A stretch of DNA of 64,000 bases, taken from positions 45,880,001 to 45,944,000 of the forward strand of contig CM069148.1 in NCBI GenBank assembly GCA_035221665.1, given 5' to 3'. Made by a program: the position numbers and the translations under genes. Shown one piece after another: positions 538 through 64,000 of the stretch (within the stretch, counting starts at the first letter, position 1; each line of letters starts with the position of its first letter). This DNA comes from Okamejei kenojei. Its lineage: Eukaryota. Under the pieces are notes generated by a model. That model ran no database searches, was not told the DNA's origin, and worked only from the letters and a program-made list of their open reading frames with translations.

Positions 538-772
538 CTATCCTTCGTTCTTGATCAGTGTTTTTTGGGCTGTGGCACGAGCTGGGGGTTTCGCCAGTTG
601 TTTTATGAGTGGCTCACATTTTGTGGGCGTACATCCACACTTGGTGACGTAAGTGTAGGTGAACGTAGTTGTCGTACTGCCTGGACAAAGTAAGGTGATG
701 TTTTTCTTGCTGGTTTCCAACTCCTGACAGCAGCTACAGTTATGTGAAATCATATTTGCTTCTGAAGAATAC
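538..772 (-). CDS. Mucin terminal exon, C-terminal half of cystine knot
   Basis: cag acceptor at 773-775; YSSEANMISHNCSCCQELETSKKNITLLCPGS...VTKCGCTPTKC...NEG*. Confidence 0.93.
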
Positions 773-9700: not shown

Positions 9701-12700
9701 TTCCATAGAACTGGAAAGGACATTTCCAGTTCTGATCAAGGGGCAGTGAGGTGAAATGTTCACTGTACACCTTTGTCCACAGGCGCTGCCTGATCCGCTG
9801 TGTATTTCAAGCATTTTCTGTTTTTGTAAACGGAGAAAGTGTCCACTTACTGCACGTGGTTTCTGTACAACATAAGTCGTCTTGGTTCCTTTCAACAACT
9901 GGTACAAAGCCTTGTTCTTTACACACCACTGGAGGTGATACGGGGCATTTGTGGGGTTTGCAGATGATACTCAATGTTGCCTTGCTGCAAGAACAATCCT
10001 GACAATTGCTTTGCCATGTTTCACCGACCTGTCACAAACACAAGAACAGCAGGATGTTTTATAAATGCGGAAGCAGAAATTAATATCATTCTCAATGATA
10101 GATATTGGCTGCTCGCTTGATAAACCTACCTGCTTTGGTTTTCCATCAGGTCCAATACAATCTACAATGGACATAAAGAAAAGTCATAACTAAGGTGCTT
10201 ACTGACTGAATTTGAACCAAAATACTAAATGCTTCTTAATCAACAAAGAAACATAACATATAAAATACAAAGAAAGAAATCCGATGGATAAAATAAGTGA
10301 TTCCTGGTCAGAGGAGCCAGCATTGACTCAAGTGACGGTCAGTCAGTCAGTCACAAGCCAATTAACCACAATAATCACTGCAATAAAATGCACTTTTAGG
10401 TGAGTTACTTTCTTGGATTTTCTCTCATGATGTATTCCATCATTCCCAATGTGCGGAACTCTCCCTACAATTCTCACATGACATTATATCCCTTCTCTGC
10501 AGTTGTCAGGGTAGTTCTAGTTAAGATTCAATTGCAGGAACTTGGTAGTGGTGGTACCAGACCTTGTAGCGGTTGTACAGAAATATACTTACTACAGCTA
10601 TCTGTACAGATGTCTCCGGGCTCAAACAGGATCTTCCCATCAGGGCAGAAGCAGCCATCATCAAGCACACCCTTACCACTGGGTGTATTTTTGTCATCCG
10701 ATCTAATCACAAAAGGGAGCATTAATATTGTGCACTGGGTGAAGGGGAGAAGGAAAACGAGAGAATGATTTTTGAATTGTCAGTGAGAATGTTTTGCAAA
10801 ATAAATGCAACAAACCTGGACCCACAAGTTGGCTGCTCCTTTGATGCACATGGTTTATATTCCATATATGCAGGGCAGTGATATGCTGGATTAAAGTAAA
10901 CAAGGGAACGAGAAATTAGGTATCATATCTGAAATTCCATGATTGTCCAACTCTTTTGGTTAATGGTTACCATGCTGGATACTCTTTCTCACATTCCTGA
11001 TACTCTTCACTGTTTTAGGTCAGGATTCATAGATTCACAGAGTTATAGAGCTGTACAGAACAGAAACAGGCCCTTCGTCTGACCCTATCCATGCCAACCA
11101 AGTTCACTTAGTGGGCTAGTCCCATTTGCCTGAATATAGCCCATATCCCTCTCAGCATTTCATATCCACACATAAATCTTAAATATGTAATTATACTGCT
11201 TCTACAGCTGCCTCAGGCAACTTATTCCAGATACACTACTGAGTGAAAATCAAATAAAGAATTTGTTTGACACTAACTGCCTATTCTGCTCTTCTATGGA
11301 TTGGTTGCACTACGGAATTTGGTATTGCACTTATCTAGTGTTACAGTTATTCATTTATTTTATTGATAATATATTTATTCATATGTTATTGCCTTTATGA
11401 GCCTGTTAAGCCGCAACAAGTAGAATGTCATTGTTCCATTCCCAGTACATATGATAATCAAATATCCTTCACTCTTGATTCAATCAGTTTTGAAAAGAAT
11501 TTGGACAAATATTTGAAAACAGTTAACATATCAAGGCCATGGGGTGAGAAGGGCAATCTAAGCAAAAATGGAGAGTCAGAGCAGTCATGATAATCTGAAG
11601 AAACTCCTGTGCTAAATCATTCAATATTATGAGGAAATGATTAGTTGTCTGTTTCCTACCGCCTTATCTCTTTCCTCTACCACCCCCTACCCCCTCCCAT
11701 TGTGACCCTATTTTACTCTTCTCCCTACATTCATCTCCCACCCCTCCCATCCTCGAGTCTTGCATTTCCCATGTATTCCCTCTCTCCTCTCCCTGTCCCC
11801 TCTACCCACATCCCTTCCACCATCTTTACATTGCACCTCTCCTTTCTGAGAATTGTGACACCCTTTTGTCTCCTTTGCATCTTCAATGTTTGTCACTGTC
11901 GCCACCAACCTACCATACATTCCCCGTCACCTGTATCCACCTATCACTCTGCCACTCCTACCTTTCTTTTACAACTTTCTCCATCAGTCTGAAGAAGGGT
12001 CCTGACCTGAATCATTGTTCATTGTCCTCTACAGATGCTACCTGACCTGTCGAATTCCTCCAGCACTTTGATTCTTGATCAGTTACTTACAACATATTCC
12101 GTCGGTGTGATTCCGCCAATCCACACAGGTATCGCCTTTAGATCTGCACATCTTGGAATACATGTCTATACTGGAACATATTATTGTCTCATTCCTGACA
12201 TGGCATGCGTCATTCACACAGGCTTCATAGAATGGGCCTGGGGGTACCTTGTCATTGCATTTTGAGAAGATACTATGAAAAGAAGAACAATGTTAGAAAT
12301 GCAACATGTTCTGAGTGGAACAGTCTACCTTACGTAGTGATTGCAAGCCATCATTCCTTCATTGCCAGAGATAAGTGACAACCTCCCTCTCTATCCCCCA
12401 CCTCCTCTCATTCTCCTTTCTCTTCTAGCCCTCTCTGAGTGGTGACGATGAGGCCATTCATCTACTTCTGACAATAGTTGAACGAAATGAGGAAAAAATG
12501 TGATGTTGGTCAAACAATCGCGGTAGATGAGCAGGTTAGCTGGTCAGATGATAAATGTCCAGAAATCTATCAATCCCTGAGAACGACTTAGCATCTGAAA
12601 CCTTCAGAGGTAGACAGTTCCATAGGTTCACCACTCAGCGAGTGAAAATACTTCTACTCTTCACAAGTTCAATGGCGAACAAATGTGGCGGGAAAGTATA

Positions 12701-15700
12701 CAGTTAACGGCAGTAGCTTTGGTTTTCGAAGGTGCATTAATGGTTGATATTCCGAAGGTCGGTCACCAGGACCAGAGTCCACAGGAAATTGTTGCAATTG
12801 CATGGAGATTGTCACCAGGTGTGCATTATCCAGGTCAACTAGTTTGTTGGCATTCAAAAGGAAATTTAATGCATACCTTTAAGAATAAAATATTTAAACA
12901 GCATTCTGATTGTTAAAATGACTAAATAGCTGTGCCAACTGGTCACTTAGAAGATAGAAAAGAGAATGATTAACCATGAGTGCCCTCATCCCCAACATTA
13001 CCCAAATGGCTCCTTTACCCTGGGAATAAGACTTACGGGCCAAGGATGATCTTGCAAATATTTGATGCTGCACAAGGGGTAGTTGGCACAGTTGTCGGAC
13101 TGAGTGTGGATTTTGGAGAAGGTGTTGGTGAAGAAAGTATTGGCCCGGGGGTTGTAGTTCCGGCATCGCAATGTGCTTTGTTCTGATCCGTAATTTTCCA
13201 GTGAGACGCGGCTTGAGAGCACGAAGATACCACAGTTCTATCAGGCAGTGTGCAGTCATCTGTCTTGTTGTTGTTGCAGGTACCTGGGGAAGTGGAAATT
13301 GAGAATTGAGGCATTACTTAAAATGTACTTCCAATGTCATCGGATGCTCACAAGCAAAGAAGTCTTCCCAATGCGTTTTCACTTATCTCATTAACCTCCT
13401 CCACACCACCCCTCCACCGATTCATGGGCCCAAACCCCAACGCCTCCCCCCACAGTGTCTGAACTTAAACAATTAGGCCAAACATTCAAATGCATTTCTC
13501 TGAACAATGTATCAATGTAACATCCATTTGATACTCAACACGGATGCCATTCTTTAAAGAATGTCTTGATCTGCTTTACATTGTCCCTTTGGTTAAACCT
13601 CCCGCTGCCCCCACAGAGGAACGTCAAGTACATTCTGAGATACACCTCATTAGATCATCTCTCAGTCACCATATCCTCCCACAAAAATAACTTGTTTGTA
13701 AAGTTGGGATAGCAAAATGAAAAAAACATTAGAAAATATGACCACATGATCATAATTGTCCTTATTTTTTTTATCTCACAAGGCAAAAAAACATATTAAC
13801 AGAACAAATACAGATTTCCAACATCTCCATGTTCTGAAGGTAATGTATTGAAAGCCCTCGTGTTAATCCATGCATGGCGATATCCCAATTTAGATGCCGC
13901 ATTTTTACAATTCTGGAAACTGAAATGAAGAAGTCCAAATGATACATACCACACTGTCCCTCAACGTTTTTCTCAAAGATCTTGTTGGGAAGGTCTATAG
14001 TAAAGCCCAGGCCATCAAATGTAATAGTAATATTAAAGCTATCAATCTCAACCTTTTCCGTGATCCCTGAGGAACTGATCCTGATCCCATCATGGGAATA
14101 AGGTTGTATAATCGCTTCATCATTGACCAGGGCCTGTATAAGAAAAAGCAAGATGCTCCAGTTAGCTACTGTTTTATTTCTGTACTTTATAAACATGAGG
14201 AACATGTTGGCACCTGAGTCAGTCTAGAATCATGGAGCAAGTGGTGACCCCTAGGACCGCGGTTGACGGTTATGGTCTATTGCTGTGTGGAGGTAGGTGG
14301 TGGCTTTCCTGAGCAACACTGCCCAACCCTTCTCAATGAGCAGGGCAGTAGGAATTTTTTTCTGACTTTGGATGTTTCTCTGCCTTGAATCCAATCCTAC
14401 CTTAATTTCTGTTCAAATCCATTTTTGTCCCCCCCCCTTGAAAAACATATAGAACATGCAGCATAGAAACAGGCCCTTTGGCCCATGATGACTATGCAGA
14501 AGTTGATACCAAGTTAAACTGATCTCTTTTGTCTGTACATGTTCCATATTCCTCCATACCCTCTCGGTACATGTGCCTGTCTAAATAGCTCTTAAGTATC
14601 ACTATTAGGCGAGGGCTTCCACCACCTCACCGGTTAGCACATTATAGGCACCCACCATCCTCTTTCTAGTAAATCTCCTTTTAACTTTCCCCACTCACCT
14701 TAAAGCTATGTCCTCTTGTCTTTTACATTTCCACCCTGAGAAAAATTTCTATCTACTCCATCCATAGCTTTCAGAATCTATATTTTACTANNNNNNNNNN
14801 NNNNNNNNNNNNNNNNNNNNNNNNNNNNNNNNNNNNNNNNNNNNNNNNNNNNNNNNNNNNNNNNNNNNNNNNNNNNNNNNNNNNNNNNNNNNNNNNNNNN
14901 NNNNNNNNNNNNNNNNNNNNNNNNNNNNNNNNNNNNNNNNNNNNNNNNNNNNNNNNNNNNNNNCTAAATGGTACACTAGTGCTACAATTGTTGGACCGCC
15001 ATACTCACCATCATCCTGTGGTGTGTTGTATCAAGTTTCGTTCAGATTGATGGTATATTTTACAAGTTATTCACATTTTAAGCTTTAGAAATGTAACTTT
15101 TCACTTGACGTTTCACTGTAAGAAATCCAATTCCACTTGCTGCCCCTGCCCGTTACAAGGTTACAAATGACAAGACACTGGGGGTCCTGTCATTTGTAAT
15201 ATTGTAATGGGCAGGGGCAGCAAATGGAATTGGATTTTTGTTAATGATAAGTGAAGAGGGTGAAGAGGGAGTGGAGGGGGTGCTGGAGGATGAGGGGAAA
15301 TGAGCCGCATTGGGGGTTATTGGTGAGTGGTGGAATATTGCGTTGGTGGAACGGGTTGCGTTGGGGGGACGAGTGAGTGGTGGACTATTGCGTTGGGGGA
15401 ACAGGACCCAATGGATCCCACTTGGTCTAGTTTTATATATTTCTATCAGGGAGCGCCACAGTCTGTGGGACGAGTTGAGTCGGCAACTTGGTATACATAG
15501 CTTTGGCATACTTGGTAGACATTAAGTCAACGGGGAATATAAAGTTGGTCAATAGGTCTGTTTTTGTGCTAAAGAGCTCTATGACTGACATTGGAACCAT
15601 TTTCCTGTGTGCTTCCTTCCTTAGGTTTTTTCTTCTGGACATTCCTTCTATTTGATTGAAGCTTTGGTGAACTCTTTTCGATGGAACATTTGCACACAAT

Positions 15701-18700
15701 AGGAGTAAACGTTAAGTGCAGCAGGTAAATGACACCATCTTTACACGTTGACTATTTTCACGCTGTCCAATCTGGTAAAAGTTCCAAAAGCGGACCAACA
15801 GTGACTTGGTCTTACCACTTGAGGGCACCCTGGGCCAGTGGGAGGATTGAGATGGTTAGGCAGACACATCTTTGGCACACATATACACAATGGGATATTC
15901 CTAGTTTTCTGTTATTTCTAGGAGAGCATTGAGAACAGTGTGCCCAACACTGGTTTATTATTGTCATGTGCACTGGGATACTGAAACACTTTCTTTTGTG
16001 TGCTATCCAGGCAAATCTTATCATAGATGAATGTATCAGCTAGTGCAAAAAAGACAACAGAGTGCAGAATATAATGTTACAGCTGCAGAGAATGCTGTTA
16101 AAAATAATGCAATGGGATAGATTGGAAGATTGGAATACATCCTGGAATACATCCTTAGATTGAGAGGATCAGTGACATAGAGGCAACTTCACAGCCATCC
16201 CAGCCTTAACCCAATGGCTTTATTTGCAATGGACTTTCATCATGGACTTAAATCCAAACTGGTGGGCGAAGCTCTCTTTGCCAGTTGGCAGAAAGTGTAG
16301 AGACACTTACCTTGGCTTTGATTGAGTTGTTGACAATCACCCTAATCAATGTGATTACTGAAGATTTGTAGAATATTTTGAGGGCTATTGGCTGCGACAA
16401 TTCTGTCCCAATGTTGGCGTTGTCCAAGTAAACCTTGAAGTTTTCGATCTTTTCTGTTATTTGCTTCACCACGATGTAAGTACATTTCCCTTTGAATGTG
16501 TATTCTGTTCCATCAAAAGTAATGTAATGGGAACCTCCCCATCCCATGCAGGAACCTGGAATATCAAAGGCAGACAAAATATTTATTTAAGCTGAAAAAG
16601 CAAACATACAGATACTGGAAAATAGAAATAAAAACCTGGTTTGATCTGGTTTGACAGTGTCTATGGGGAGGAAGATAGGTTAACAGTTCAGGTAAATGAC
16701 CTTTTGTTAGTTCTTAATAAAATGAAAATACTGTATATATTATTTTTTTAAGCTAGAAGTCTAATCATTGTTTTTGGAAGAAAAATGTTTTTTAGCCAAT
16801 AAAGGAATAACCTTATGGTAATTTTAAACTCAGGCCTAAAATAAACCAGACTGTTGATGTATGAATCCCATTGTGTGCTGTCCGAATTGGCCAATTGCAG
16901 CATTTCTGGACAGCCCCAACCTATTGGCAAGGTCCTATCCGCCAAGGCACTTTTAACTTCCCATGAAATTGGCAGTGATAGCTTTGTTCTGTTGACCGAG
17001 ATTATGTCTCCAACTTGGAGAACGATAGGTTGAAGACCCACTTTCTCAAAATGTCACAGCCGAGATCCCAGTATGTCACTGGGAGATTGACTTCAAAGCC
17101 ACAGGTTAAGCAGGGAAGCTTGTTCAGTCATGAGATTGCAAAGTCCCATCGTACATGAGCAAGAAGTTCTTCAAAACTCACTCTTCAACCAAAAAACGAA
17201 CTTATTCTATTTGGCCATTTTTTTTACATTTCTAAGACAAGGCTGAGGCAGTTTCCTTCGCTGAGAGAAATGGCATGCTACACACTCCAAACACTACATC
17301 AGTTCGCAGTTGGTGAAATCTATGTCCATTTGCAAAGAATTACTTCCCGATTCCCCAAGAAATCCCCATTCCAAGTATATTTTGCAAATAGTTAAATTAA
17401 TATATATTTTTCATCTTACTATGAATCAGCATATACCAGAAATTTGCATATTTTTCAAGTAGTTAAATTACCAATAACTTCTTCCCAATAATTGTTTTGA
17501 AATATTTCTTCATGATGGTATCAATCACTGTTTGTTCAGCTAGATAATTCCCCAGAATCTTCTTTCCTCACCTAGGATCATGTCACTACACTCTGTGGTT
17601 GGTATTGTGTATGTTGCACAACTCTTATTCTGTTGTCCTTATGTGAATATTTTTCTGTTTTTATAAAATCTGATAACACCCATCACGCACAAACACTAAA
17701 AAAAAAATTCCATAAAAGTTTCTGTTGCAGTTATGGTCCACTCGAAATTAGCTCCTGGACAGACTTATTGGATTGTCTCTTTCTTTCAGGACTGAAGGGG
17801 AGAATGGCCTCTCATTTCTCCTCACCCCCAGACCCTGACTACTGATCTCTAATACTCATGGAATCATGCAGCATGGATGCAGGCCCTTTGGCCCAACTCA
17901 TCTCTGATGAGCAAGATTCCTATCTAAGCTAGACACTTTTGCCTGAATCCAAGTTCTGCCAGAACTCAATGAGTTGCCGACAAAAAAAGTTGAAAAATAA
18001 AGCTGGAGTAATTCTGGTGGTGAGACCTGTTGGGTTAATGTATTATCGACTCGTCAATTAACACAGTGAAATAATGAACTACGCGTTCCTTCAGCATGTT
18101 ACCTCCATCTTCCACCCATCTATTTAATCACATTTAATTTGGATAATGCATGCATATCCACAATACTCACAGCCACATTCTTGCTGATAGCAGCAGTTGG
18201 AATCGTCATAAACCTTTCTGGGTTGCAGTCCATTTTGACAAACGATTGGTTTAACACTTGGACATTTCACTGACTTCACGGAAACAGTGTCATTCCCTTT
18301 GCATGTTGCCTTTGTGCAATTGTCCAGTTTCCAAGTCTCATTCATCTATGGTTGGTGGGGGGGGGGGGGGGGGAATGAACAATTGTAAGAAGTTAAGGCA
18401 TTCACAGAATCCCTGAGGCTGGAGAAGGAGAAAACAACTACCACCCAACCAGACCTGAATCTCATTGTGCCAAGAACCCATTGAGATCTGACTTCAATTC
18501 CAGTAAGGTCAGAAATAGTGTGGGGATGTGGCAGGGCAATGAATCTCATGGGGATGGTTAAGAGACCTTCAATATATTATGGGGGTGTTCCCTTAAAATA
18601 TCTATACCATTTAGACCCATAAATGTGACACAGGGATGAAATCCAATTAGCTCATTAAAGTATTCTAAGGACATGTGTGATAAGTCTAATAGGTCAAGAA

Positions 18701-21700
18701 AACCAATAAGTTTAATCGAGGATGAACAAAAATTATTTGACAGGAAAAGGATGGCAAAACATGCTGATATTTTTCCGTTTTAATAAAATTGGATGACCCC
18801 CATCACCCATGAGTACTAAAAAACTTTCCTTAAAGGTTTCAGTACCAGTTATGGTGCACTTGAGATGAGCTCTAGTGATGAGCTCCTTTGGCTTTGGGGG
18901 AGGTGGACCTCAATGATATTTCGAGAAGAGAGGGAAGCTGTAGATGTTTGTAAGGGGAATGACAGAAAAATAGAAAGAATATCATGGAAGGGTTACATGG
19001 AGATTAGAAGGCCAGGGACAGCCAGGTAGGAGATATTCAGTAAAGAAGGGAAAGGGGAGAAGCAATAAGTAGAGGGCCAGAATGTAGCTGGACATGTTTT
19101 ATATCTCAGTAATCTGGGAATTCACTGGGTCTGGGGGAAACACTAAACCTTGGGGTTTCATCACCTGCTGCGTCTGTTGCAGCACAATCAAGAGCCTGAG
19201 CATCATATGTCACTGAGAGGCCCCTACAACATGTGGCGGGTAGACTGCACTGGTGCGGAATGCATAGAGGAAAGTCTTTGTCTGGGAATGAGTCCTGGTG
19301 GACTGTAGGTGAGGTGCGCCCCATTCAGGGGAGGGTTGTCCACAGGTGGCCAGTGTGTTTGGGATTAGATGGCCTACCAAAGCCTGGAACGATGGAGGAG
19401 GCACTAGGCTGCGGGGGGTGGGGGTGTACTTTCCTGATCCATGGTGAAGGGGTTTGTATAGGGACTGTCAGTAAGGCTGACTGCCAGTTGTTATGCTGCT
19501 GGCTGGGAGAGGTGCTGTAAAAATTCATGAAGTAATGAGATTTTAGAGGAATGAGTGACTTGGGTTCCCAGCTGGTTGGGGAAGCATCTCCTCACAGCAG
19601 CTGCAACTTAGAACAGTCCGCTCCAGTATCACAGGCAAAGTAATATTGGATCAGCTGGGCGTTAGGGTGGCATGGTGGTGCAGCGGTAGATTGTTGACTT
19701 ACAGCGCCAGAGACCCTGGTTCGAACCTGACTACGGGTGCTATTGTAAATTGTCTCTGGTGTGTAGGATAGTATTAGTGTACAGGGTGTTCGCTGGTGGA
19801 TGCGGACTTGGTGGGCCAAAGGGCCTGTTTTGATGCTGTATCTCTAAAACTAAAAACTAAAAAACTAATCGACCTTTGGATAGGCACATGGAAGTGCAGG
19901 GAATAGACTTTGGATATGGATCATGTACAGGTAGATGAGAACGGTTTTATTTGGCTTCATGTTTCGGCACTAACATTGGGGTTGAAGAGCTTGTTCCAAT
20001 GCTGTACTATTCTATGTTCGAAAGACCCCAGATGTCACAAGGATACTCACAGCTCTCGGTGGGTGCAGGTCTGGGCAACCACCTGCTGGTACTGTTGTTG
20101 TTGGTGCTGATGTGGTTGGTAAAACGGAAGTGGAGACTTCGCATGGTATGGTGTGCTTCACAATATCACACTTAGATGTACATAACCCAATGTAACACCA
20201 GCCAGCTTTATCACTGGTAAAGTAAATTTCCTCTCCTGCAAAGAAAAGGAAATGCGATCTCCGTAAGTCTTGACACACTGCAGGAATTCAGTGTTTAAGT
20301 AAAAAATACACTTGCTAGTGCTACATTTTTGGACAAACCATGGAAATTTATACATTGCCTCATGGGAAATGCACTATTTTATGTATTGCATCACGAGATT
20401 TAATTTGGCATATTTCTACCAAGAATCACACACACAGAAAATTAGAAATCTCACCTCTTCTTTAGGACAGTTGTTCCCCTGGTTGCAGTGGGAAGAGATA
20501 AACGATTGCATTAGTTATATCGTGGTCAGATATAACATGCAAAGGAGGGTTAAAAACAAACGTTACCCACATTTGTGCGGTCAGAACGGAAGGTTTTTGC
20601 TCTATTTTCCAGGTGAACATTGCAATAGTAACTGCGCAGAGTAGAGTTGCTGCCTTACAGCGCTTGCACGCCAGAGACCCTGGTTCGATCCCAACTATGG
20701 GTGCTGTCTGTACGGAGTTTGTACTGTGTGGGTTCTCTCTGAGATCTTCGGCTTCCTCCCACACTCCAAAGACGTACCGGTTTGTTGATTAATTGACTAC
20801 TTGGTATAAGTGAAAATTGTCATTGTGTGTAGACAGTGTTGGTGCATGGGGATCAGTGTGGACGCGGTTGGCCGAAGGGCCTGTTTCCACGCCTTGTAGA
20901 TTCTGTTGTATTGGATATAGCAATAGCAGTTGTTTTGCATTTTCCCATATGTATAAAGACCTACAGAATTCGCTGCATTCTGACCCAAAGGTCGAACAAA
21001 TGGAAATTGTAATTCAGAAGTAAAATACATTCTACCTGCCGGTGTTATTGGCATAGATAGACACAAAATACTGGAGTTACTCAGTGGGACAAGCAGCATC
21101 TCTGGAGAGAAGGAATGGGCGATGTTTCGGGTCGAGACGCTCTTCAGACTGCGAGTCTGGGGAGAGGAAGACTAGAGAGATATGGAAGGGTGAGGTGTGA
21201 AAACTACAGATCAAAGCAGACAGTGCTGAAGGAAATATAGAGTGGTTCATTGTTAGCAGAGGGCAAAATGACAGCGAGGCGTACAATCAGTAACATTAAT
21301 CAGGAGGATAGTGAAACTAGTCAGAGCACAGATTGTCTCTGATTTGTAGTTTAAACACCAATAGAAAGGTTACATGTTTATAATTACAGAATGGTACAGT
21401 TGAAAAATGTGTGGTTGGATATGTATATTACTACATTTTGAAACCATTTTGCCAGCTTATACTATACTCTAATATTTCATTGGTTTGTATATTCTTCGGA
21501 TTGAATTTGTTTTAGAATTGCACCAGAAGAATGGTTGAACAGATTTAATAAACATTGTTTTGCTTTGTACCTGCAGCCATAATATATTATCCATTTGACA
21601 AGTGGGAATGTTTTTTAAAACAATGTAAGCAAGAGTTCCAGTGATAGGGAAATGGAATGATGGCAAGATTAATGAACCTGTGATATGTTCTTTTATGGCT

Positions 21701-24700
21701 TGATTAGGGAACATAGTAATGGCAGGTACACCAACTGCAGTCAAGTGTTTTTCCTTGAGGAATATAGAGGGTATAGGAGAAACTGAGAACAAATGGAGGT
21801 GAGTAAATATTGTTAGTCTGAAGGAGGGTCTCGACCCGAAACGTCGCCTAGTTCCTTCGCTCCATAGATGCTGCCTCAACCGCTGAGTTTCTCCAGCATT
21901 CTTGTCTACCTTTGATTTTCCAGCATCTGCAGTTCCTTCTTAAACAAAATATTATTAGCAGGTAAGATATGCTGACTATCATTCTATATCTATATTAGAA
22001 GCAAGAGAGATAGACACAAAATGATGGAGGGACAAACAGCAACTTTGGATAGAAGGAATGGATTACGTTTCCGGTAGAGACCCTCCTTCAGACTGAGGGG
22101 AGAGGGAGACACAGAGATATGGAAGGGTAATGTGTGAAAATGAGATCAAAGGGGATGAAGCTCAAGGAAAATGTAGAATAGATCATTGACAGCTATGGAA
22201 AGGTAAATAGGATGGTGAAGAAAGCATATGTTATCGGTAACTTCTGTAGGTCAAGACGTGGAATATAAGAATCGGGACCTTATGGTGCACTCTAGAAAAC
22301 ACTGGTTACACCATAAGGAGTTATATGTGCAGTTTTGATACCCACACTATAGAAAGGATGTGGTTGCGCTGGAGAGAATGCAGAGGGGATTCACCAGGAG
22401 ACCTGGTGATCTGAATGAGGTATATACGATGAACAGAAGCAAAGATTGAGCATATTGTCCAAATCTTTTTCCCATGGCAGGGATATTGAAAATAAGAGGG
22501 CACATGTTTAAGATGAAATGAAGGAGTTTTGAAAGAGACGTGAGGGTTAGGGATAGCCAGACGAGGTGCTGGATGTAGCAGCCATTTATCTTAACTCAGT
22601 ATATTATAACTATAACCAGTTACCTTTAAATTTTATCTGCCTGTAATTATGTGGGTGGGATATATATGAGGCGTGTTTGTGGCTTGGATTCTCGCACAGA
22701 CTCCCTAGTAGTTAGATTAGTTTGACGAACGAGGCAACGGTCTTAGCTTCCGACCATGCACGAGCATGATCACGATTGAATTGAAATGTACTTATACAAG
22801 AAGAAGGGGTGGAAGATTGCAACCTTCACGTGGTCCGCCCTGTTTCGACTAATGCAATCAACTCGACTTGCAGAAGCAGAAGATCAAATAGAACAAGTTG
22901 TCCAACAACTTTAGGCTGTGCATGCCACACGGCAGAAGAAGAAGATACAAGAAGAAGTTTGGATGAATATCTTACTGTTTTTACTACTACAATAAAGAAA
23001 CTATTAATCAAGAGACTGTGTTTGGAAGATTTATCTTTCAGCGGCATTGAGTGTCTCGTGGAGAGCTCGTGAGTGCGTATCAATTATCTCCTGATCCCCT
23101 GTCTTCAATCATAGTGACTAAAGGAAATAATCCTTGAGACGATATAAAAATCTGTCATCATTTAGGTAGACTTAAGTAGGCAAGGCACAGAAGGATACAG
23201 TCCTAATGCTTCAAATGGGAATTGTGTACAGGGGCAAATACATGTTGTGGGCATATTGTGCCGAAGGGGCCATTTCTGTGCTGCACAAACGATGGTGTTG
23301 CTCATCGAGCAAATAAGGCTCTTATTACATCCTCAGTGATCTTTTCACATAGAACTGAATTTCTAGAATAAATCCGAGGTAGATGGTCTATAAACCATAT
23401 ATATTAAAAATACCACAAATAGAAAGACGAAATAAAAACAGAGAAATAAACGAGAAAGCTAACTTACAGTCCGACAGACATACAGATAGTACATTCTTTA
23501 CAAAAGGCCCTGTCCCACAATGCGAGTTCACCCAAGAGCTCTCCCAAGTTAAAAAAAAAATCTAACTCGTGGTAAGTATGTGGAATGTACGTAGCGGGTA
23601 TGTCGGAGCTCGTGGATGTCTCATAGTGGCTCGTAATGCTAACGGCAGGTACTCCGGAAAAGCGGAAACTCGTGAAGTTTTTTCCACAGTGTGAAAAATT
23701 ACCAAGAGTAAAAAAATACTCGTGATGTGTTTGATTTTTTTTTTTAACTCGGGAGAGTTAAAGTAGTAGTAAAAACTCTTGGGTAAACTCGCATCGTGGG
23801 ACAGGCCATAAAGAGGAGCACGAGCCACACCCTGCCCACTCCCTCTTCTCCCTCTCCCATCGGGCAAAAGGTATAGAAGTGAAAATGCACACCTTCAGAT
23901 TCAGGGACAGTTTCTTTCCAGCTGCTATCAGGCAACTGAAACATTCCACCACAACCAGCGAACAGTCCTGAACGACGATCCTGCTCATCCGTGACCCTCT
24001 GACTATCTTTGATTGGACTTTACTGGCTTTACCTTGCACTAAACGTTATTCCCTGATCATGTATCTGTACACTGTGAATGGTTCGATTGTAATCATGTTT
24101 TGTGTTTCCGCAAACTGGTTAGGACGCAACAAAACTTTTCACTGTACCTCGGTACATGTGATAATATACTGAACTGAAGAAGAAAAATTGGATATTTTAA
24201 CAAGCCACAGGTATTAGTGTGAGTGAACAAAGCAAGTGCACAGCAGCAAATGATCAGTACTGTAATTGCTTTGCTGGAAACACTAGGTTATGTACTGGTG
24301 TCAGTTTGGTGTCTGCGTCTCTATACCAGTTGATCAAGGGGAGATGGGGCCAAAGTCAGGGGTCTGGGCTAACTTGGGCTAGTAGCACATCAACAAGGAA
24401 GCCTGGGAACATCCTCACACATGGGAAGATTAGGAAGTGGCGCATTGATAAGAGGCCTGCTCTGGAACATGTGTGGAAGACCTGTGAAAGACATATACTG
24501 TACGTTTGTACCAACATTCGTATGGTGATTTGTATAAATTCACATGCTGAGCTTATACAGAGGTCTAACAAACACATTCATGGACTGTGAAACAAGCCAT
24601 GTAAAGGACTGGACTATCACTTCAATTATACAATTTAATGATTGATTTATACAGTCACATGTTATGAACAAGTGATACACTGACCTGCAGATATTACTTT

Positions 24701-27700
24701 CCCGTTGACTTTGCAGACGCAGGGTGTTGAAGCTGTGAAACCGGGAGTTGTTGCTTGCACTGTTGTGGTTTCAGCTGTACTGTGCTCGGTGATTGGAGAG
24801 GTGTTTTCACACTTTCTTGTATATGTCAAAATTTTGCAGCCCTCAGTGCACAGTGTGTAATTGCAGAGGCCTGATTTATCTTCGGAAATCACAGTGGATT
24901 GACCTGCATGTCAAAGCAACAGAAATTATGCTTCAACAATGTGTTGGATGGATATAAAAATGAACAAAAGTCATATTTCTAGCTGGGAATACACTAGGAG
25001 TCACCACTCACTCCACAGAAACGACATCACCACTACATTTCCACTGATATTATTAATGCCAAAATGTTTCTTCAGCCATACACTAGTTAGCTACTGTTAA
25101 ATCCTGTGGATTTTGGTGCTGTTTGCTGTCAAAATATATATAGTATACAAAGATATGTACAAATATGTATTGGACAATTCCTTTGCAAAGTTTGTAGACT
25201 GCTGTTGAACTGTGTTTTCTTCATCAGGCAAGCTCTATGCAACGGGAAGAGGACATCACAAACTAGAAAGAGCAGTGGGTCATTGACAGCATTGGATCCG
25301 CATCTCCACAGAACATGAGATGAAGGCCCAAGGAACTGCAGATTTTGGTTTACAAAAAAAGACTAAAAGTGTTGGAGTAACTCAACGAGTCAGGCAGAAT
25401 CTCGGGAGAACATGGATACGTGACATTTCAGATCAGGACTCTTATTCAGATTGATTGTGGTGGGTTTTTGAGATACAGATGTGTAGGCAAAGGTCTGATG
25501 AGTTGCAAATCGTGAGGCTAGAGGAAGAAATGTCAGTGGAAGTGGTAGAGATAAGTGCAAGTCTAGATGAGGCACGAAGGAGGGGGGGGATGAAAATGAA
25601 AGTGGAAGTGGCGTGAGAAAGGGGAGGGTGTCTCCAGGTCAGGCAAAGTGGTGCAGTTAAATCAGACATTTATAACTTTACTCTGTGTACTGTGGATTGT
25701 AAAGTTCTGAAGTACACAGGAAGATGTGAGCTCCAGTGTATATTGATGCCGCTGAAGTACAGATGGTCGAAAGTTTTAAGTTCTTAAGATTAAATATCGG
25801 CAACAATTTGTCATGGACTAACCACATTGACGCAATAGCCAAGAAAGAACATCAACTTCCTTAGATGGCTTAGGATGTTTGACATATCTCCAACAACCCT
25901 CACCAACTTCCACAGATGCGCCACAGAAAAATAAAATTGGCAATAGCTTCATCCAAAACCACAATAGATTGCAGAGAATTGTGGATGTGGGCCAAACCAT
26001 CATACAAACAAACTACCTTTCTATGGACTCCACCTACACCAAGCTGACTTGGCAAGGCCAAGCTTAATCAAAGAGCAGTCTCACCCCAGCCACTTCCTCA
26101 TCTCCCATCAGACAGATGCGCAGAAGTTTGAAAACACATACCTGCAGTTTCAGGGAATTTCTTCTAAGGAGTTATCAGGGAATTGAACCGTTCTCTCACC
26201 AGCTAGATTGTGGTCCCGACCTGCCATCTACCTTATTAGACATCTTTGAACTATCTTTAATCAGACTTTATCTTGCACTAAATGATATACCCTTTATCCT
26301 AAACTGTACACTGTGGAGGTTTGATGATAATCACGTCTAGTCTTTTTGCTGACCTTGGTACATGTGACAATAATAATCTAAATCTAAACTGAAAGGAATA
26401 TAACCAACAAATATCTTGATCTATGTTTTGGAATGAGATTCGTGTATTTCATATGTGCAATAAGGTTGAAAGAGTGTTAATATCATTTTACAGAGTAAGT
26501 GTCAAGAATCAGGAGGTTCTGAAGAACATTGAGCAAACGGAAGGATGTGTATCATATTGTAGAATGCCAGGCAAGGCAGCCACTGGTTGGCAGTATGTGT
26601 AAAGGAAATAGTGGAGAGGCTGGAAAATGCTTGAACAGTGTTTTCCGTTTGAGTTAATGTGATCAAAGTGCTTAATATCTCCAATGTGACCACAGGCTTC
26701 TTTCTTGCAACCACTGAGCTACAAGATATTTTTGGTTCCTGTGGTCCTTAAACCCAACAAAATGTGAGGAGATGACTATTTCCCCAGAAAGTACGTGATC
26801 GGACATGTACAATTAACCTTGGGGATGGGTGGACAGATGTTTTCCCAAGCAAAACCAAGAGTCTGTAATTATTTGCCATTCATTGCCAATGAATGCTGTT
26901 GCCATTCTCAGAGAGGGATCATGGATTACATCGCAATCTGATGTTGCTGCTGAGAACAACTTGAAACAGTTCTATCCTGGTGCTCAACAGTTGTAAGCAA
27001 GAAGCCTCTGGTCACGGTTGACGAATTAAAAACTTAAAAAAAAAAAAACTACTTAAAGAAAAAATCTAAGATAGAAATAAATTTCTACAAAGCCTTTGAT
27101 CATAGAAAGCTTTGTTAAATTGAGTCAAAGAGGGGTCCCTAAATATATTGTGAGAATACTGGCTTACTGGTATGCCCACCAGACTATGCAAATAAAATGG
27201 CGCAATAGGGTCTCAGCCCCATTTGGGATTAGCAATGGTGTTAGACAAGGGGGGATTTTGGCCCCGGTCCGTTTTAATCTTTATATTGATGATCTGTCCA
27301 AGCAATTGAAAGCCTGTAACACTGGGTGCGTGATTGGTAATATTTTAGTGAACCATATTATGTATGCAGATGATCTTGTGGTCTTTAGTCCATCTAGTGC
27401 TGGTCTCCTGTAGCTCCTTACTACATGTTATGTGTATGGTGTGGAACATGATATTAAATGTAATTAAAAGTGCTGTTATGATCTGTAGATCCAAAGAGGA
27501 TAAATGTCTAAAATGTCCTGATTTTAAATTGTCTGACATTAATCTTAGTGTCTGTAATAAGGTAAAATATCATGGGCATTTTATTACAGAACAAATGACA
27601 GATGATGAGGATATTTAAAGGCAAGTCATATGCTGTATGTACAGGCTAATATTCCCTTTTATAAGTTTGGTGCGTTTACAGTTGTAGTGAAGTCTATTTC

Positions 27701-30700
27701 AGAGCATATCGTACACCACTCTATACTGCACACCTGTGGTAAAACTACAGAAAAACAAGTTTACACAGATTTAAAATAGCGAATAATTATGCCATTAGAA
27801 TACTACTAAAGAAACCTACATGGTGTAGTGCAAGTGAAATGTTTGTGGCTGCAGGAGTCTGTACTTTACAAGCTATCCTAATAAATCATATGTATCAATT
27901 TATTGGCAGGATTAATGGCTCTGAAAAAGAAGTTATCTTGGTCTAATCAAACATAAGGTTTAGCACAACACGCTACCAATCACAGCTGTGGACATTGGTA
28001 TTGTTGTCTTGTTGTAGGACATGATCTTTCTTTTTATTCTGGATTTTAAATCATGTATTGTATTTTTGTGTATAATCTTTGATGCTCATAAGAAATTTAC
28101 TAAGCTTTTATATGTATTATGGTGTTTTTATATGCAATGTATTCTATGTAATGTCACCTTTTATTGGACCTTGAGTCTGAAACAAAATTTTAATTAGAAA
28201 ATTAAAACAATTGATTAATTAATTAATTGACACACTTACCAGGGAGCATTATTCGCCCGTCATTCTCACAGGTACATGCTGTAGTTCCTCTTGACGTTGG
28301 TGTTACTGTCACTGTTGTAGCTGATGTTGTGGTTTCTGCTGGTGTGGTTGTAGTTTCACATCTTCCGTGTACTTCAGAATTTCACAATCCTCAGCACACA
28401 GAGTAAAGTTACAGAGGCCTGATTTATCTGCAGAAGTCACAGTTGCCTGACCTGGAGGCAAAATAATGAAAATCAGGGTGAGTGAACCTGAATGTAATGA
28501 AACCATGAAATATCTTTATCTCCGCTAATGAAGCTTGTTCATATCCATCACTTGAGAAATAAGTCTTAAATTTGTGAATATTATTTAGCAGACTGTGTGT
28601 CAAGAATCAGGATGTTCTGAACCTCATCCGGTAAACACCAGGGTCTGGTTGTGAAGCTTAACATTTTGGCAAAGCAGCTTGCTGCTGACAGGCTGTGTAA
28701 AAGGAAATTGTGGAGTGAATGTAAAGGCACAATACAGGAATCAGCAGACAATAGCGCGGCAATTGCAGAACGGATACGCAGTTGCATGATTCATTATTGA
28801 GAGGGGATGGTGATATCTCCAGAATGTGCGAGATCAGGCGTGTACAATTAACTTTGGAGATGGGTGGACATACGTTTTCCCAAGGAAAAGCAAGTGTGTG
28901 TAATTATTTGCCACGCATTGCCAATCAATGCTGTTGCAATTTTCTGCATTGGGATTATGGATGACATCACAACCTGATGTTGCTGCTGAGGTCCACTTGA
29001 AACAATTTTATCCTGGAGCTCAACAGTTGCAAGCAACAAGCCTCTGATCACGTTGAAACAATTAAGAACTCAAACAAATTAATTCACTAGAAAATAAAGG
29101 TAGTATAGAAATACATTAGCACTATGTATTATCATGTTGAAATAAAGATTGGAGCAACACATTCACAATCTGAGGCACTTCTTGCATTCATCTTAAGATA
29201 GCAAGAGTCATTAAACAAAATATGTTTCTTTGCAATGTGCATGGAAGAGGTCTATGATAATTGACACACTTACCAGGTACCATTTTTCGCCCGTCATTCT
29301 CACAGGTACATGTGGTAGTTCCTACCCAAGAGACAGCTGTAAAGCTCTTTCTTTGAAATGTGAACAGAAGAGCACTTTGATTACTGACACACTTACCTGG
29401 TGACATTATATGTCCGTCAACATCACATGAACAGATTGTAGTTCCTTTTGACGTTGGTGTTACTGTCACTGTTGTAGCTGATGTTGTGGTTTCTGCTGGT
29501 GTGGTTGTACTTTCACATCTTCCTGTGTACTTCAGAACTTCACAATCCTCAGTACACAGAGTAAAGTTACAGAGGCCTGATTTGCCTGCAGACGTCACAG
29601 TTGCCTGACCTGGTGGCGAAGAAAAGAAAATCAGGTTGTGTACACTTGAAGGTGATGTAACTGATGACTATCTTTATGTTTGAGCCCACCTCCCCCATCC
29701 CGTCCTCACCACTTTCTACAGGGGCACCATAGAGAGTATTTTGACCAGTTGCATCTCTGTCTGGTTTGGGGACTGTTAAAACCTCCAACTGGAAGACCGT
29801 GCAGAGAGTGGTGAGGACAGCTGAAAAAATCGTCGAGACTTCTCTCCCCTCAATCGGGGATATTGCGACCAAACGTAGCGTGTCTAAGGCCAGCAGTATT
29901 ATAAAGGACCCCACACATCTCCATCACGGACCGTTCACTCTGCTGCCCTCGGGCAAAAGATATCGTAGCATAAGGAGCAGAACATCAAGGTTCTGCAACA
30001 GCTTCTTCCCACGAGCCATCAGACTCCTGAATGCCATGTAATGGGCTGCCACCATTGTCTATGTATCCTTTTATCCTTCTATCCATTTTATCCATTTTAT
30101 CCTTCTGTTTATTATCGTGTTGCACGGGGAGCCAGCAATGATGGATTTTAGAAATACATCGATGCATGTATCGATGTATTTCTAAATGACAATAACGTTT
30201 GTTTGACTTTGACTTGATATTGTAGCTGAATTATTGCGGTTGTGCAGAATTGTTGAGGAGGCTTTATTATAATTTCAAAGAATTTGTATAAATTCTCAAC
30301 AAATTCTCAACCACATCTGAGCAAAGACCAGTGTGTGATTTCATATCATAGCTTGCGGCTGGCAGGCCTTGTAAAAGACAATAGGAGAGAGAATGTAAAT
30401 CAGCGGAAGAGTGAGCGACAATTGCAGTAAGGTTGCTCTGTTGCTTAGTTCATTTTTGGGCAGAAATACCTTTTTTCAGGGGAGGTATGATCTGGCCCAT
30501 AACACAATACATGGGGTCGGGTGGACAACAACATTTCCAGTATAAAAGTGTAGGTCCACACTCGTGAGTAAACCTCTATGATCAGTGTTGCTGCCAATCG
30601 CAATGTTGGGGTGCTGAATTATATCGTAACAAGATGTTGCATTTTAGGATCATTTGCACCAAATATATCGTGTAGCTCAATGGTTCCATTGGAGCAACGA

Positions 30701-33700
30701 AAAACTTTGACCCAAACAGAAAAATCATTGAGAGAAATAAGATGCTATAATTTCTATTAACATTTATAGGATAATGCATTTGCTTCATAATCTGATGCAT
30801 TTCTGGCAGTCATCTACACGTAGCTAAAGACTGAGGTAAACCCCTTACTTTGAAATGTGACTGGAAGAGCACTTTGATAATTGACACACTTACCAGGTGA
30901 CATTATATGTCCGTCATCATCACAGGAACAGAGGGTAGTTCCTTTTGACGTTGGTGTTACTGTCACTGTTGTAGCTGATGTTGTGGTTTCTGCTGGTGTG
31001 GTTGTACTTTCACATCTTCCTGTGTACTTCAGAACTTCACAATCCTCAGTACACAGAGTAAAGTTACAGAGGCCTGATTTACCTGCAGAAGTCACAGTTG
31101 CCTGACCTGGAGGCAAATGAAAAAATATCAGGTTGTGTACACCTGAAGATGATGTAATTGATGACTATCTTTATGTATGATGTTGAAATTGGTTCATGTC
31201 TTTCACTTGGGAAATAAGTTTGAAATGTGTGAATATTATTTTGCCGACTGCATCAAGGATCAGGATGTTCTGAACCAAATCTGAGCAAACAGCATTGTCA
31301 GCTGCGATGCAAACAAACACAACTGTACAATGGGAGCTGGTTGGCAGCTTAAGGACTAATGTGGTTCTTTCCAGACTCTTTTAGATCCTTTTGAGATTTG
31401 GAACAACACCAACAGTCACCATGTAGACATACACACACTAGGAGCAGAAACTGCCTCTCAAATCCAATCCACCAGTCGTAGTGTTATACAGCATTGAAAC
31501 GCATCCAAGCTAACCAAATTACCTGATTGAATTTCCGATTTACCTGTGATTGGCCCATAATCATTTGAACCTTAGTACAGAGTAAAGTTACACAGCCCTG
31601 ATTTACCGGCAGACATCACCATTGCCTGACGTGGAGGCAAAGTAAAGAAAATCAGGGTTTGCGAACCTGCATGTTATATAATCATAAAATATCTTTATCT
31701 CTGCTGATGACGCTGGTTCATGCATTTCACTTAGTAAGTAAGTTTGAAATATGAGAATATTATTTTGTAGAATGCATCAAAGATCGGGACGTTCTGAACA
31801 ACATCTGTGTAAGTACCAGGGTCTAGTTGTGAAGCATAACATTTTTAGCAGAGGATTACTTGACAACTGCATAACGGATACTCATTTGCATGATTCATTA
31901 TTGCGAGGAATTGGCAATGTCTCCTGAAGATGCGTGATCAGGCGTGTACAATTAACCTTGGAAATGGGTGAACACACGTTTTCCCAATGAAAAGCAAGGG
32001 TGTGATTATTTGCCATCCGTTGCCAATCAATGCTGCTGCCATTTTCAGCTTTGGGATTATGGATTTCTTTGTCTTTTCAATGTGAACGGAAGAGCTCTGT
32101 GATAATTGACACACTTACCAGGTAACATTATTCGCCCGTCATTCTCACAGGTACATGTGGTAGTTCCTCTTGACGTTGGTGTTACTGTCACTGTTGTAGC
32201 TGATGTTGTAGTTTCTGCTGGTGTGCTTGTACTTTCACATCTTCCTGTGTACTTCATAACTTTACAATCTTCAGTACACAGAATGAAGTTACAGAGGCCT
32301 GATTTACCTGTAGACGTCACAGTTGCCTGACCTGGAAGCAAAGAAAAGAAAATCAGGTTGTAATTTCAAAGTGTTTGCATCAAGAATCAAGAAATGATGT
32401 ACCTCGTTTGATCAAACACAGTGCGTGACTTCATATCGTAGATTGTGGCTGGCAGGCCTTGTAAAAGGGAATTGTGGGGAGAATATAATATAGAAATAAG
32501 CAGAAGAGTGAGCGGCAATTGCAGTAAGGTTGCTCAGTTGCGAAGTTCATTTTTGGGCAGAAATAACCTTTTTCACGGAGGCATGATCTGGCCCACAACT
32601 GAAACCATGGGCGGACCACAAAATTTCCAGTATGAAAGTGTAGGTCCACATTGTGAGCAAACCTCTCTGATCAATGCTGCTGTCAAGCAGAATGAAGGGA
32701 TGTTGAACTTTGTCGTAACATGATGTTGCATTTAAGGAGCATTTGAATGAATTACATCCTGTAGCTCTATGGTTTGCAAGAAGAAGTATCCGGTGATTTT
32801 AAACTATTAAGAGCTTCAACCACATTAACTCAAATGGAAAAAACTAAGAAAGCAGAAAGATTCTATAATTTATGTTGACATGTTTAGAACTGTGCATCAA
32901 CTTCATAATTGGATGCATTTCTTGCTATCATCTGCACTTAGCAAGAAACAGATGAAGGTTCCATAGATGCTGCCTCACCCGCTGAGTTACACGAGCATGT
33001 TTGACTACCCAAGAGACAGCTGTAAAGCTCTTTCTTTGAAATATGAACAGAAGAGCACTTTGATTACTGACACACTTACCTGGTGACATTATATGTCCGT
33101 CAACATCACATGAACAGATTGTAGTTCCTTTTGACGTTGGTGTTACTGTCACTGTTGTAGCTGATGTTGTGGTTTCTGCTGTTGTGGTTGTACTTTCACA
33201 TCTTCCTGTGTACTTCAGAACTTCACAATCCTCAGTACACAGAGTAAAGTTACAGAGGCCTGATTTACCTGCAGAAGTCACAGTTGCCTGACCTGGAGGC
33301 AAAGAAAAAAATATCAGGTTGTGTACACGTAAAGGTGATGTAACTGATGACTATCTTTATGTATGATGTTGAAGCTGGTTCATGTCTTTCACTTGGGAAA
33401 TAAGTTTGAAATATGTGAATATTATTTTGCCGACTGCATCAAGGATCAGGATGTTCTGAACCAAATCTGAGCAAACAGCATTGTCTGCGTTTTTGGAGCT
33501 GGTTGGCAGCGGTTCATCCAAGATTCTTTTGAGATTTGGAACAACACCAACAGCCACCATGTAGACATACACACACTAGGAGCAGGAACTGCCTCTCAAA
33601 TCCAATCCACCAGTCGTAGTGTTATACAGCATTTTAACTCATCCAAGCTAACCAAATTACCTAATAGAATTTCCCATTTACTTGTGTTTGGCCCATAATC

Positions 33701-59617: not shown

Positions 59618-60807
59618 CTAGAGGCAAAGAATAAAATATCAGGTTGTGTACACGTAAAGGTGATGTAACTGATGACTATCTTTTTGTATGATGTTGAAGC
59701 TGGTTCATTTCTTTCACTTGGGCAAAATAAGTTTGAAATGTGTGAATATTAAATTTGCCGACTCCTTCAAGGATCAGGATGTTCTGAACCAAATCTGAGC
59801 AAACAGCATTGTCTGCGTTTTTGGAGCAGTTTGGCAGCGGTTCTTCTAGCTCTGTCATTAATGCAAACAAACACAACATTTTTCAACTGGGATGAATGGA
59901 TACAAAAAATGGGAATCAGTTATCCTTGATGGTGTTTGACATTGGTAGCTTTTAGACATCGATGCTTTCAGGGAACTGCTGGACTCATCATTTCCAGACA
60001 TTTCCCAGATATAGCGATGGCTCCTTAAGGACTCATGTGTATCTTCACATCAGTTCTCAAAATTCTCTTTCCAGATTCTTTAAGTTTCACAAGATTCTTT
60101 TGAGATTTGGAACAACCCCAACAGCCACCATGTAGACATACACACACTAGGTGCAGGAACTGCCTCTCAAATTCAATCCACCAGTCGTAGTGTTATACAG
60201 CATTGAAACTCATCCAAGCTAACCAAATTACCTAATAGAATTTCATATTTACTTGTGTTTGGCCCATAATCATTTGAACCTTAGTACACAAAGTTACACA
60301 GCCCTGATTTACCGGCAGACATCACCATTGCCTGACGTGGAGGCAAAGTAAAGAAAATGAGGGTTTGCGAACCTGCATGTTATATAATCATAAAATATCT
60401 TTATCTCTGCTGATGACGCTGGTTCATGCGTTTCACTTAGTAAGTAAGTTTGTAATATGAGAATATTATTTTGCAGAATGCATCAAAGATCAGGACGTTC
60501 TGAACCACATCTGTGCAAGCAACATGGTCTAGTTGTGAAGCATAACATTTTGGCAAAGCTGGTTGCTGCTGACAGGCAGTGTCAAAGGGAATTCTACAGT
60601 GAATGTGAAAGCACAATACAGGAATCAGCAGAAGATTACTTGACAACTGCATCACGGATGCTCATTTGCATGATTCATTTTTGCGAAGGGCTGGAAATAT
60701 CTCCTGAAGGTGCGTGATCAGGCGTGTACAATTAACCTTGGAAATGGGTAAACATACGTTTTCCCAATGAAAAGCAAGGGTGTGAATATTTGCCATCCGT
60801 TGCCAAT

Positions 60808-63800: not shown

Positions 63801-64000
63801 AACTGGTACGATGTCCAGTTGTGGTGGCAGATGGAACTCTCATGAGTCTACATTCCTGGAGTCACATGGGATAAACTATATAGAAATGCTGGGGGCATTT
63901 CATGGACTGCGGGCTTACTGTACTAATTCACGGGATTACATGTCCGCTTTCGAATAGATAATGCTACAGTAGTGGCTTACATCAATCATATGGGTGGTAT
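60808..64000 (+). mobile_element. DIRS1-like retrotransposon, degenerate, continuing past the window
   Basis: Abrupt GC-rich start tttacttcggagtcacgtgagtgacttcgtgaag; gag-like region; RT motifs (GCRIIIDLTELNTFVQYTHFKMDT, ACIDLKEACYTVPI, MDYLGFTLDT); DIRS-type RNase H (LLTDASAPGWGA, INYIEMLGA, IDNATVVAYINHMGG); several stops and frameshifts. Confidence 0.88.

Follow-up and report, generated by a model that had tools for sequence, protein, structure and literature searches.

How a mucin gene came to carry 28 repeated exons, each holding the end of one cysteine module and the beginning of the next, is the question raised by a 64,000-nt stretch of the Okamejei kenojei genome (GCA_035221665.1, contig CM069148.1, positions 45,880,001 to 45,944,000; hereafter the window, with positions counted from its first letter). 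The window contains the 3′ half of a gene on the minus strand, the 5′ part of which lies beyond it. Judged by its sequence, this gene is most likely an elasmobranch gel-forming mucin of the MUC5 type. The explanation that we favor, with a probability of about 0.72, is that a duplication preceding the divergence of sharks and rays created a hybrid symmetric exon in an elasmobranch mucin, which was then amplified into a string of bead-like modules. We refer to the last four Cys of a module as its C-half and to the first two (CxC...PG) as its N-half. The exons carrying the argument are these:

29397..59617, minus strand: array of 28 intact 213-nt exons, all phase 1/1, 15 of type A and 13 of type B
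24685..24903, minus strand: last repeat exon, 219 nt, phase 1/1, a diverged copy at the array edge that supplies the N-half of the terminal module
20051..20235, minus strand: unique terminal exon, 185 nt, phase 1 to 0

All 30 exons are bounded by AG/GT, the first 29 in phase 1/1 and the final one in phase 1/0, and splicing them in silico yielded 2122 stop-free residues with 29 full six-Cys modules. A first-pass annotation of the window had placed exons at 20051-20235 and 24685-24903, and both were recovered with exactly these ends and with splice sites. The spacing C-x4-C-x3-C-x8-C that it had described as common to exon 20051 and the repeats gave 30 matches on the minus strand and none on the plus strand. 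Each repeat exon was indeed found to encode the last four Cys of one module, a 27-residue Ser/Thr/Pro linker and the first two Cys (CxC...) of the next, with the intron inside the domain, where it splits a Gly codon at the module junction. Linkers comprised 27-29 residues with 68% Ser/Thr/Pro and were Cys-free in 29/29 cases. The terminal exon encodes the C-half (4 Cys) of the last module, a short stretch resembling PTS3 and the first Cys of the VWCN domain. A DKxG motif, reported as shared with the repeats, occurred in exon 20051, exon 24685 and one repeat (58654), while 27 of the 28 repeats had GKSG. In pairwise BLASTP, exon 20051 matched exon 24685 with an E-value of 1e-9 and a B repeat with 2e-6. 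Types A and B alternate within a 2.2-kb unit; nucleotide identity was 98.9% for A-A, 98.4% for B-B and 88.1% for A-B pairs, and neighboring units were 99.3/98.7% identical in exons and 97.6/98.2% in introns. Between A and B exons, the proportion of nonsynonymous differences (pN) was 0.095 and that of synonymous differences (pS) 0.196.

The repeat exon had been described as a circularly permuted copy of the module. This description fits the exon, which is a half-plus-half unit, and fails for the protein domain, since the spliced modules are colinear with single-copy orthologues. Fold prediction for a sawfish module in domain register gave a mean predicted local distance difference test (pLDDT) score of 83.2 for a five-stranded fold in which the split Gly falls between strands 2 and 3; a window exon in exon register reached 58.9. 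The nine top structural neighbors all contain fibronectin type I (FnI) modules (best Z 5.9, rmsd 2.9, 48 aligned residues). These models are suggestive of an FnI-like five-strand domain with the intron between hairpin and sheet. FnI, VWC N-leaf and VWF E modules have the hairpin and three-stranded sheet predicted here, but four Cys instead of six, and they combine this likeness with low sequence identity and no Pfam match. When the Cys residues are named a-f, neither a nor e is present in the invertebrate-like proteins introduced below, and Gly takes the place of e in the N-terminal module of mucins. Taken with the FnI disulfide pattern, which we assume to apply to the module, this co-absence predicts the bonds b-d, c-f and a-e, two of which would cross the intron. 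By sequence, the N-terminal homologue of the module in MUC5AC lies inside constructs in the PDB; PMC11933400 describes that region as too flexible to model.

The module proved to be homologous to the Cys module that follows the Pro/Thr/Ser-rich (PTS) region of bony-vertebrate mucins, as the first-pass annotation had proposed. A profile of four exon peptides, searched against 1.84 billion proteins, gave 12 matches, and eight of the ten inspected are or resemble shark or ray mucins (seven by name). From a search with the D3 region, we used the best 120 of 2363 matches, comprising 65 proteins taken as bony-vertebrate mucins, three further elasmobranch proteins, two already in the set and 50 controls of FCGBP/zonadhesin type. 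Exactly two modules were present in 60/65 bony mucins, as a rule a five-Cys module following D3/E3 and one with six Cys behind the PTS region, which replaces the earlier notion of a single module. Nor does the module directly precede D4, because a short PTS stretch and the VWCN exon (~18164-18345) lie in between. The post-PTS module was found in 59/65 bony mucins, and a profile built from the repeats alone ranked it first in 55 of these 59 (median 9.9 bits, against 3.8 for the N-terminal module and at most 4.5 for other regions). On the 50 controls, a general module profile scored no more than 11.0 bits against a cut-off of 30. Sequence homology and the six-Cys pattern both place the repeats with the post-PTS module. 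Orthologous modules matching the repeat profile occur in mammal, bird, reptile, amphibian, coelacanth and ray-finned fish proteins. A single module of this kind, bearing the DKAGWC motif also seen in exon 20051, is reported for zebrafish Muc5.1 and Muc5.2 (PMC4200417).

The repeat module probably corresponds, by position, to the "MUC11p15-type domain", which PMC6780288 gives as the first 3′ subdomain of human MUC5B and MUC5AC, before A3uD4 and D4; PMC4414189 uses the same name for a domain that precedes the mucin domain. In human MUC5B/MUC5AC this domain occupies the same place as the array module, after the central region and before VWCN/D4, but bony vertebrates have one post-PTS copy versus up to ~58 in elasmobranch models. 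PTS3 and VWCN follow downstream (as set out in PMC12775068), and in our alignment the module lies upstream of the solved MUC2-C construct described in PMC10082768. Pfam searches with exon peptides and modules returned no meaningful family, PDB sequence searches with exon 20051 and with an exon-register profile gave chance matches only, an ESM Atlas search gave no usable match, and word-based protein searches, which are weak tests, found nothing for exon 24685 or the VWCN exon. The third Cys was spaced C-x4-C in 31/62 and C-x5-C in 31/62 bony post-PTS modules, with most mammalian MUC5AC-named proteins showing the former and MUC5B-named and sauropsid ones the latter, a possible paralogue marker judging from these sequences. 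Four ENA proteins (P0013, P0014, P0021 and P0022), which are probably secreted invertebrate-like proteins, are made of a four-Cys version of the module, repeated with Pro/Thr linkers in between; no VWD was seen in them. The origin of the module may predate vertebrates, with arrays formed independently in such proteins.

Adjacent modules, that is, an array, occurred in 12/12 named elasmobranch proteins from nine species (Heptranchias, Narcine, Pristis, Rhinoraja, two Chiloscyllium, Scyliorhinus, Cetorhinus and Carcharodon) and in 0/65 bony mucins. Counted over all proteins of elasmobranch type, the figure was 12/13, the thirteenth being a single-exon fragment. The array thus extends over sevengill, bamboo, cat, basking and white sharks as well as sawfish, electric ray and skate, with up to 58 C-halves in one Narcine model. 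The eight array proteins that include D3 formed one clade (SH-aLRT 100) divided into sharks and batoids, and the window repeats grouped with those of sawfish and electric ray (97/97), which suggests a batoid source. By these sequences, the array predates the shark-ray split and is neither recent nor private to the window genome. The repeats clustered largely by lineage, a sign of concerted evolution.

The same proteins show no sign of CysD, a familiar domain of the PTS region in mucins; the central exon of the window gene lies beyond the window. The WxxW motif was found in none of the 12 named elasmobranch proteins (eight of which span the PTS region), compared with a CysD-like pattern in 65/65 bony mucins, and Pfam CysD (Mucin2_WxxW) was absent from 5/5 elasmobranch relatives and present in 2/2 bony controls. 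According to PMC4948705, only 11 of 26 Xenopus mucins contain CysD; loss of CysD is accordingly not unique and CysD not obligatory. The array itself is already present in automatic RefSeq predictions of "mucin-2-like" shark and ray proteins (XP_067833067.1, XP_069776668.1, XP_051885680.1 and XP_072448971.1), in which the module is unnamed and the names shown do not annotate the architecture. Our literature search found no paper on this array; subscription papers, bioRxiv supplements and the supplements of PMC4948705 (domain drawings and elephant shark models, which may bear on novelty) were outside its scope. What is new here is the array in 12/12 shark and ray proteins versus 0/65 bony ones, together with the missing CysD motif in those shark and ray proteins.

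Where, then, did the repeat exon come from? The first-pass annotation had suggested an out-of-register duplication that fused the 5′ part of the post-PTS exon to the 3′ end of the PTS exon. Complete models from rays and sharks show an N-half (CxC...PG) at the end of the long PTS region, directly before the first repeat, and the last repeat is followed by a C-half of terminal type, PTS3 and VWCN, which is the domain order needed by this model. The repeats formed one clade (100/99) inside the post-PTS modules and apart from the N-terminal modules; one of the module trees was built without C-x5-C and irregular modules and with no more than three distinct repeats from any one protein. Because the N-terminal modules stand in a clade of their own and scored lower with the profile, they were rejected as the source of the repeat. 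A repeat profile restricted to the C-half, chosen to avoid the shared N-half, scored four shark terminal exons at 13.6-17.0 bits and the best bony module at 8.1, indicating that the repeat arose from the terminal exon of the same gene in the cartilaginous-fish line. Descent from that exon is thus supported at the sequence level, by the C-half profile as well as by the N-half before the first repeat; the breakpoint could not be located in the low-complexity linkers.

The same annotation had regarded exon 24685 as intermediate and expected exon 20051, followed by 24685, to branch basally. Exon 20051 did fall outside the repeat clade (100/99); it aligned with the white-shark mucin P0092 at 51%, and its C-half was identical to shark terminal C-halves at 16-18/31 positions. 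Exon 24685 behaved differently from what was expected: its C-half matched that of 20051 at 11 of 31 residues, within the range of the other repeats (repeat A 10, repeat B 9, white-shark repeat 12; that is, 9-12/31), and matched the window repeats at 19-20/31. One tree placed it as sister to the other repeats (92/72) and another among shark repeats, and the approximately unbiased (AU) test rejected neither placement (p 0.59 and 0.54). The final repeat resembles the rest of its own array in four sharks, which fits 24685 as an edge copy that escaped homogenisation. By its sequence, exon 24685 is a diverged repeat and not a demonstrated intermediate.

The history that we favor would begin with jawed-vertebrate mucins that carry one six-Cys module resembling FnI and the VWC N-leaf behind the PTS region, split by an intron such that the β-hairpin lies at the end of the central exon and the three-stranded sheet at the start of the next. 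This intron, which the first-pass annotation also places in human MUC5B/MUC5AC after the central exon, may be conserved in bony vertebrates, as gene models suggest indirectly: of 62 bony modules 8 were irregular, 6/8 of them breaking at the junction Gly, and two zebrafish Muc5.2 models diverge at the junction Gly. A tandem duplication older than the shark-ray split, whose breakpoints both fell in coding sequence rich in Thr (one in PTS3 of the terminal exon, the other in the central exon's tail), would have produced a hybrid symmetric exon consisting of C-half, linker and N-half. At each junction between hybrid exons, splicing would restore a normal domain without permutation, and neither frame nor Cys pairing would be disturbed when whole exons are added or lost, so that unequal crossing-over could amplify and homogenise the array within lineages. 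The protein product would be a string of small disulfide-bonded beads joined by 27-29-residue O-glycosylatable linkers.

The same end product could have been reached if a larger block, namely the end of the central exon, the intron and the whole terminal exon, had been duplicated and a later deletion or intron loss had fused the halves. A bony gene model with a repeated block of N-module and post-module exists (Discoglossus P0062), and the array edge in the window is full of partial, rearranged copies. Nevertheless, this route requires more steps and has left no trace of the VWCN Cys of the terminal exon in any of the 29 linkers, and we consider it unlikely. Still less probable is an array ancestral to vertebrate mucins that bony vertebrates reduced to its first and last modules. 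The presence of bony-vertebrate modules on both sides of the PTS region would fit such a reduction, as would the four-Cys arrays with PTS linkers in the invertebrate-like P0013, P0014 and P0021; however, the C-halves of the repeats are nearer to elasmobranch terminal exons than to any bony module, the N-terminal modules form a separate clade, and adjacent modules were kept in 0/65 bony proteins.

It is highly improbable that the protein domain itself was permuted, with each exon an autonomous domain whose hairpin folds onto the sheet of the same exon. The exon-register model does retain the strands of both halves, but the module register is predicted far more confidently, the spacing from hairpin to sheet over the junction equals that of single-copy orthologues (54/62 regular) while linker length varies between species, and the first and last modules are possible in the normal register only. 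An assembly artefact or a non-coding satellite with chance open frames deserves equally little credence. Units that are 96-98% alike, dead and partial copies, and repeat-exon splicing predicted from sequence alone would be expected of such a locus, but differences between the copies are scattered, all 28 retain AG/GT ends, an intact frame and six Cys, pN between A and B is half of pS, and the array recurs in nine other species.

Several observations nonetheless count against duplication through exonic breakpoints followed by amplification of a coding exon, or against parts of this account. Within type B, pN (0.016) is close to pS (0.020), pointing to little constraint among few changes, and splicing of the repeat exons is a prediction from the DNA sequence. 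The trees, built on 31-44 columns, contain long branches, and their root within the repeat clade is unstable. A breakpoint cannot be placed in linkers of such low complexity, and comparison of the last intron with the repeat introns gave no usable homology (one internal 52-nt match and a 16-nt acceptor match with E 0.28). The 65 bony proteins include no holocephalan, cyclostome, human or mammalian MUC2 entry. Support for the fold is modest, with Z under 8; Foldseek returned no match at E 0.001, although VWF, vWC and FnI entries stood near the top of its list, and the two pLDDT values stem from alignments of different depth (10 rows in domain register, 7 in exon register), the exon-register run also including the linker. 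Finally, in the D3 tree the elasmobranch clade joins two long-branched teleost Muc2-like sequences (SH-aLRT 94, unstarred), which speaks against the MUC5 label.

That label, and the assignment to gel-forming mucins, draw on the exons downstream of the array:

18164..18345 (ends approximate), minus strand: VWCN (D4N / A3uD4) exon, matching human MUC2 7qcl with E 3.8e-10
577..16550 (range approximate), minus strand: VWD4, C8, TIL, VWC and cystine knot exons, with E 1.7e-15 for C8 and E 2.8e-4 for Cys_knot

The order VWCN-VWD4-C8-TIL-VWC-cystine knot is that of the C-terminus of gel-forming mucins, and the array-bearing relatives P0007, P0019 and P0092 have three N-terminal VWD-C8-TIL assemblies and a PTS region, of which the window, as the 3′ half only, has no part. 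Alignment to 7qcl put Asp at the place of human C4379 (numbering as in PMC10082768), so that the VWCN exon lacks the extra Cys of the MUC2 type. The N-terminal module of a skate relative matched human MUC5AC with E 3e-19. MUC5 is favored because of the lacking MUC2-type Cys and the MUC5AC-like N-terminal module in relatives. With half of the bony modules being C-x5-C, the C-x4-C spacing of the window modules is MUC5AC-like rather than MUC5B-like. A teleost gene of the Muc2 type (with the extra VWCN Cys), Scortum P0047, also has a post-PTS module (residues 1873-2000), with a gene-model insertion at the same junction.

As to function, the sequence would most likely specify a beaded, glycosylated spacer. 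By analogy, a role as a non-covalent cross-linker in place of CysD is plausible, because the N-leaves of VWC dimerise in MUC2-C (PMC10082768). That an elasmobranch-wide mucin lost CysD and had it functionally replaced by a self-associating bead string, which sets the mesh of the gel and whose copy number is tunable by gain, loss or skipping of whole exons, is a tentative and rather doubtful proposal. Shark skin mucus is reported to hold mucin-2-like and 5B-like proteins (PMC10707392).

Half-domain exons and multi-exon Cys/PTS mucins are already known, and mucin biology is not overturned by this locus. The CN exons of progranulin (PMC4527844) are half-plus-half units like the repeat exon, but the 12-Cys granulin module described there is unrelated, and the array linkers are of mucin type. 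The nearest architectural analogue is Xenopus MucXS/Otogl (PMC5789918), whose repeat has a CCxxxxC consensus and is by inspection a different module; no D4 is described for it. Identity of the array module with the MucXS repeat was rejected on the Cys pattern. Nearly all MUC2/MUC5 models of jawed vertebrates that were examined retain the post-PTS module, although the library searched contains no Pfam family for it and the solved MUC2 C-terminal construct does not include it. A gene in which this module is multiplied tens of times and no CysD is seen offers a natural experiment on the role of the module, which is, moreover, a small soluble unit that is easy to express. As a case of half-domain exon amplification with higher-order repeat units, the array is also both clean and old.

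Decayed copies accompany the intact exons, both within the array and at its edges:

28240..28451, minus strand: repeat exon copy of 212 nt, one base short, giving a frameshift if included; a pseudo-exon or a sequence error
31577..60336, minus strand: 14 truncated exon remnants, one in every 2.2-kb unit, with 46-63 nt matched and AC in place of the acceptor AG in all of them
29274..29323, minus strand: orphan 3′ end of a B-type exon with donor site
25654..25729, plus strand: inverted repeat-exon fragment, 76 nt, 83% identity

Besides its A and B exons, each 2.2-kb unit holds a third copy that is truncated and dead, always with the same altered acceptor, suggesting that an older three-exon unit was amplified after the death of one exon, thus forming a higher-order repeat. 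The region 24904-29396 is a decayed edge that holds the 212-nt copy, the orphan exon end, the inverted fragment and relic intron pieces of ~80% identity. Upstream, the array ends at ~60807, adjoining a GC-rich insertion that spans 60810-64000 of the window and abuts the array. A Pfam scan of three frames of this insertion gave no match; its plus-strand frame 63345-63659 contains a motif that we take to be that of a DIRS-like reverse transcriptase. Long parts of the arrays of Heptranchias P0005 and Chiloscyllium punctatum P0019 likewise show two alternating variants, a pattern that seems independent of the A/B pair in the window.

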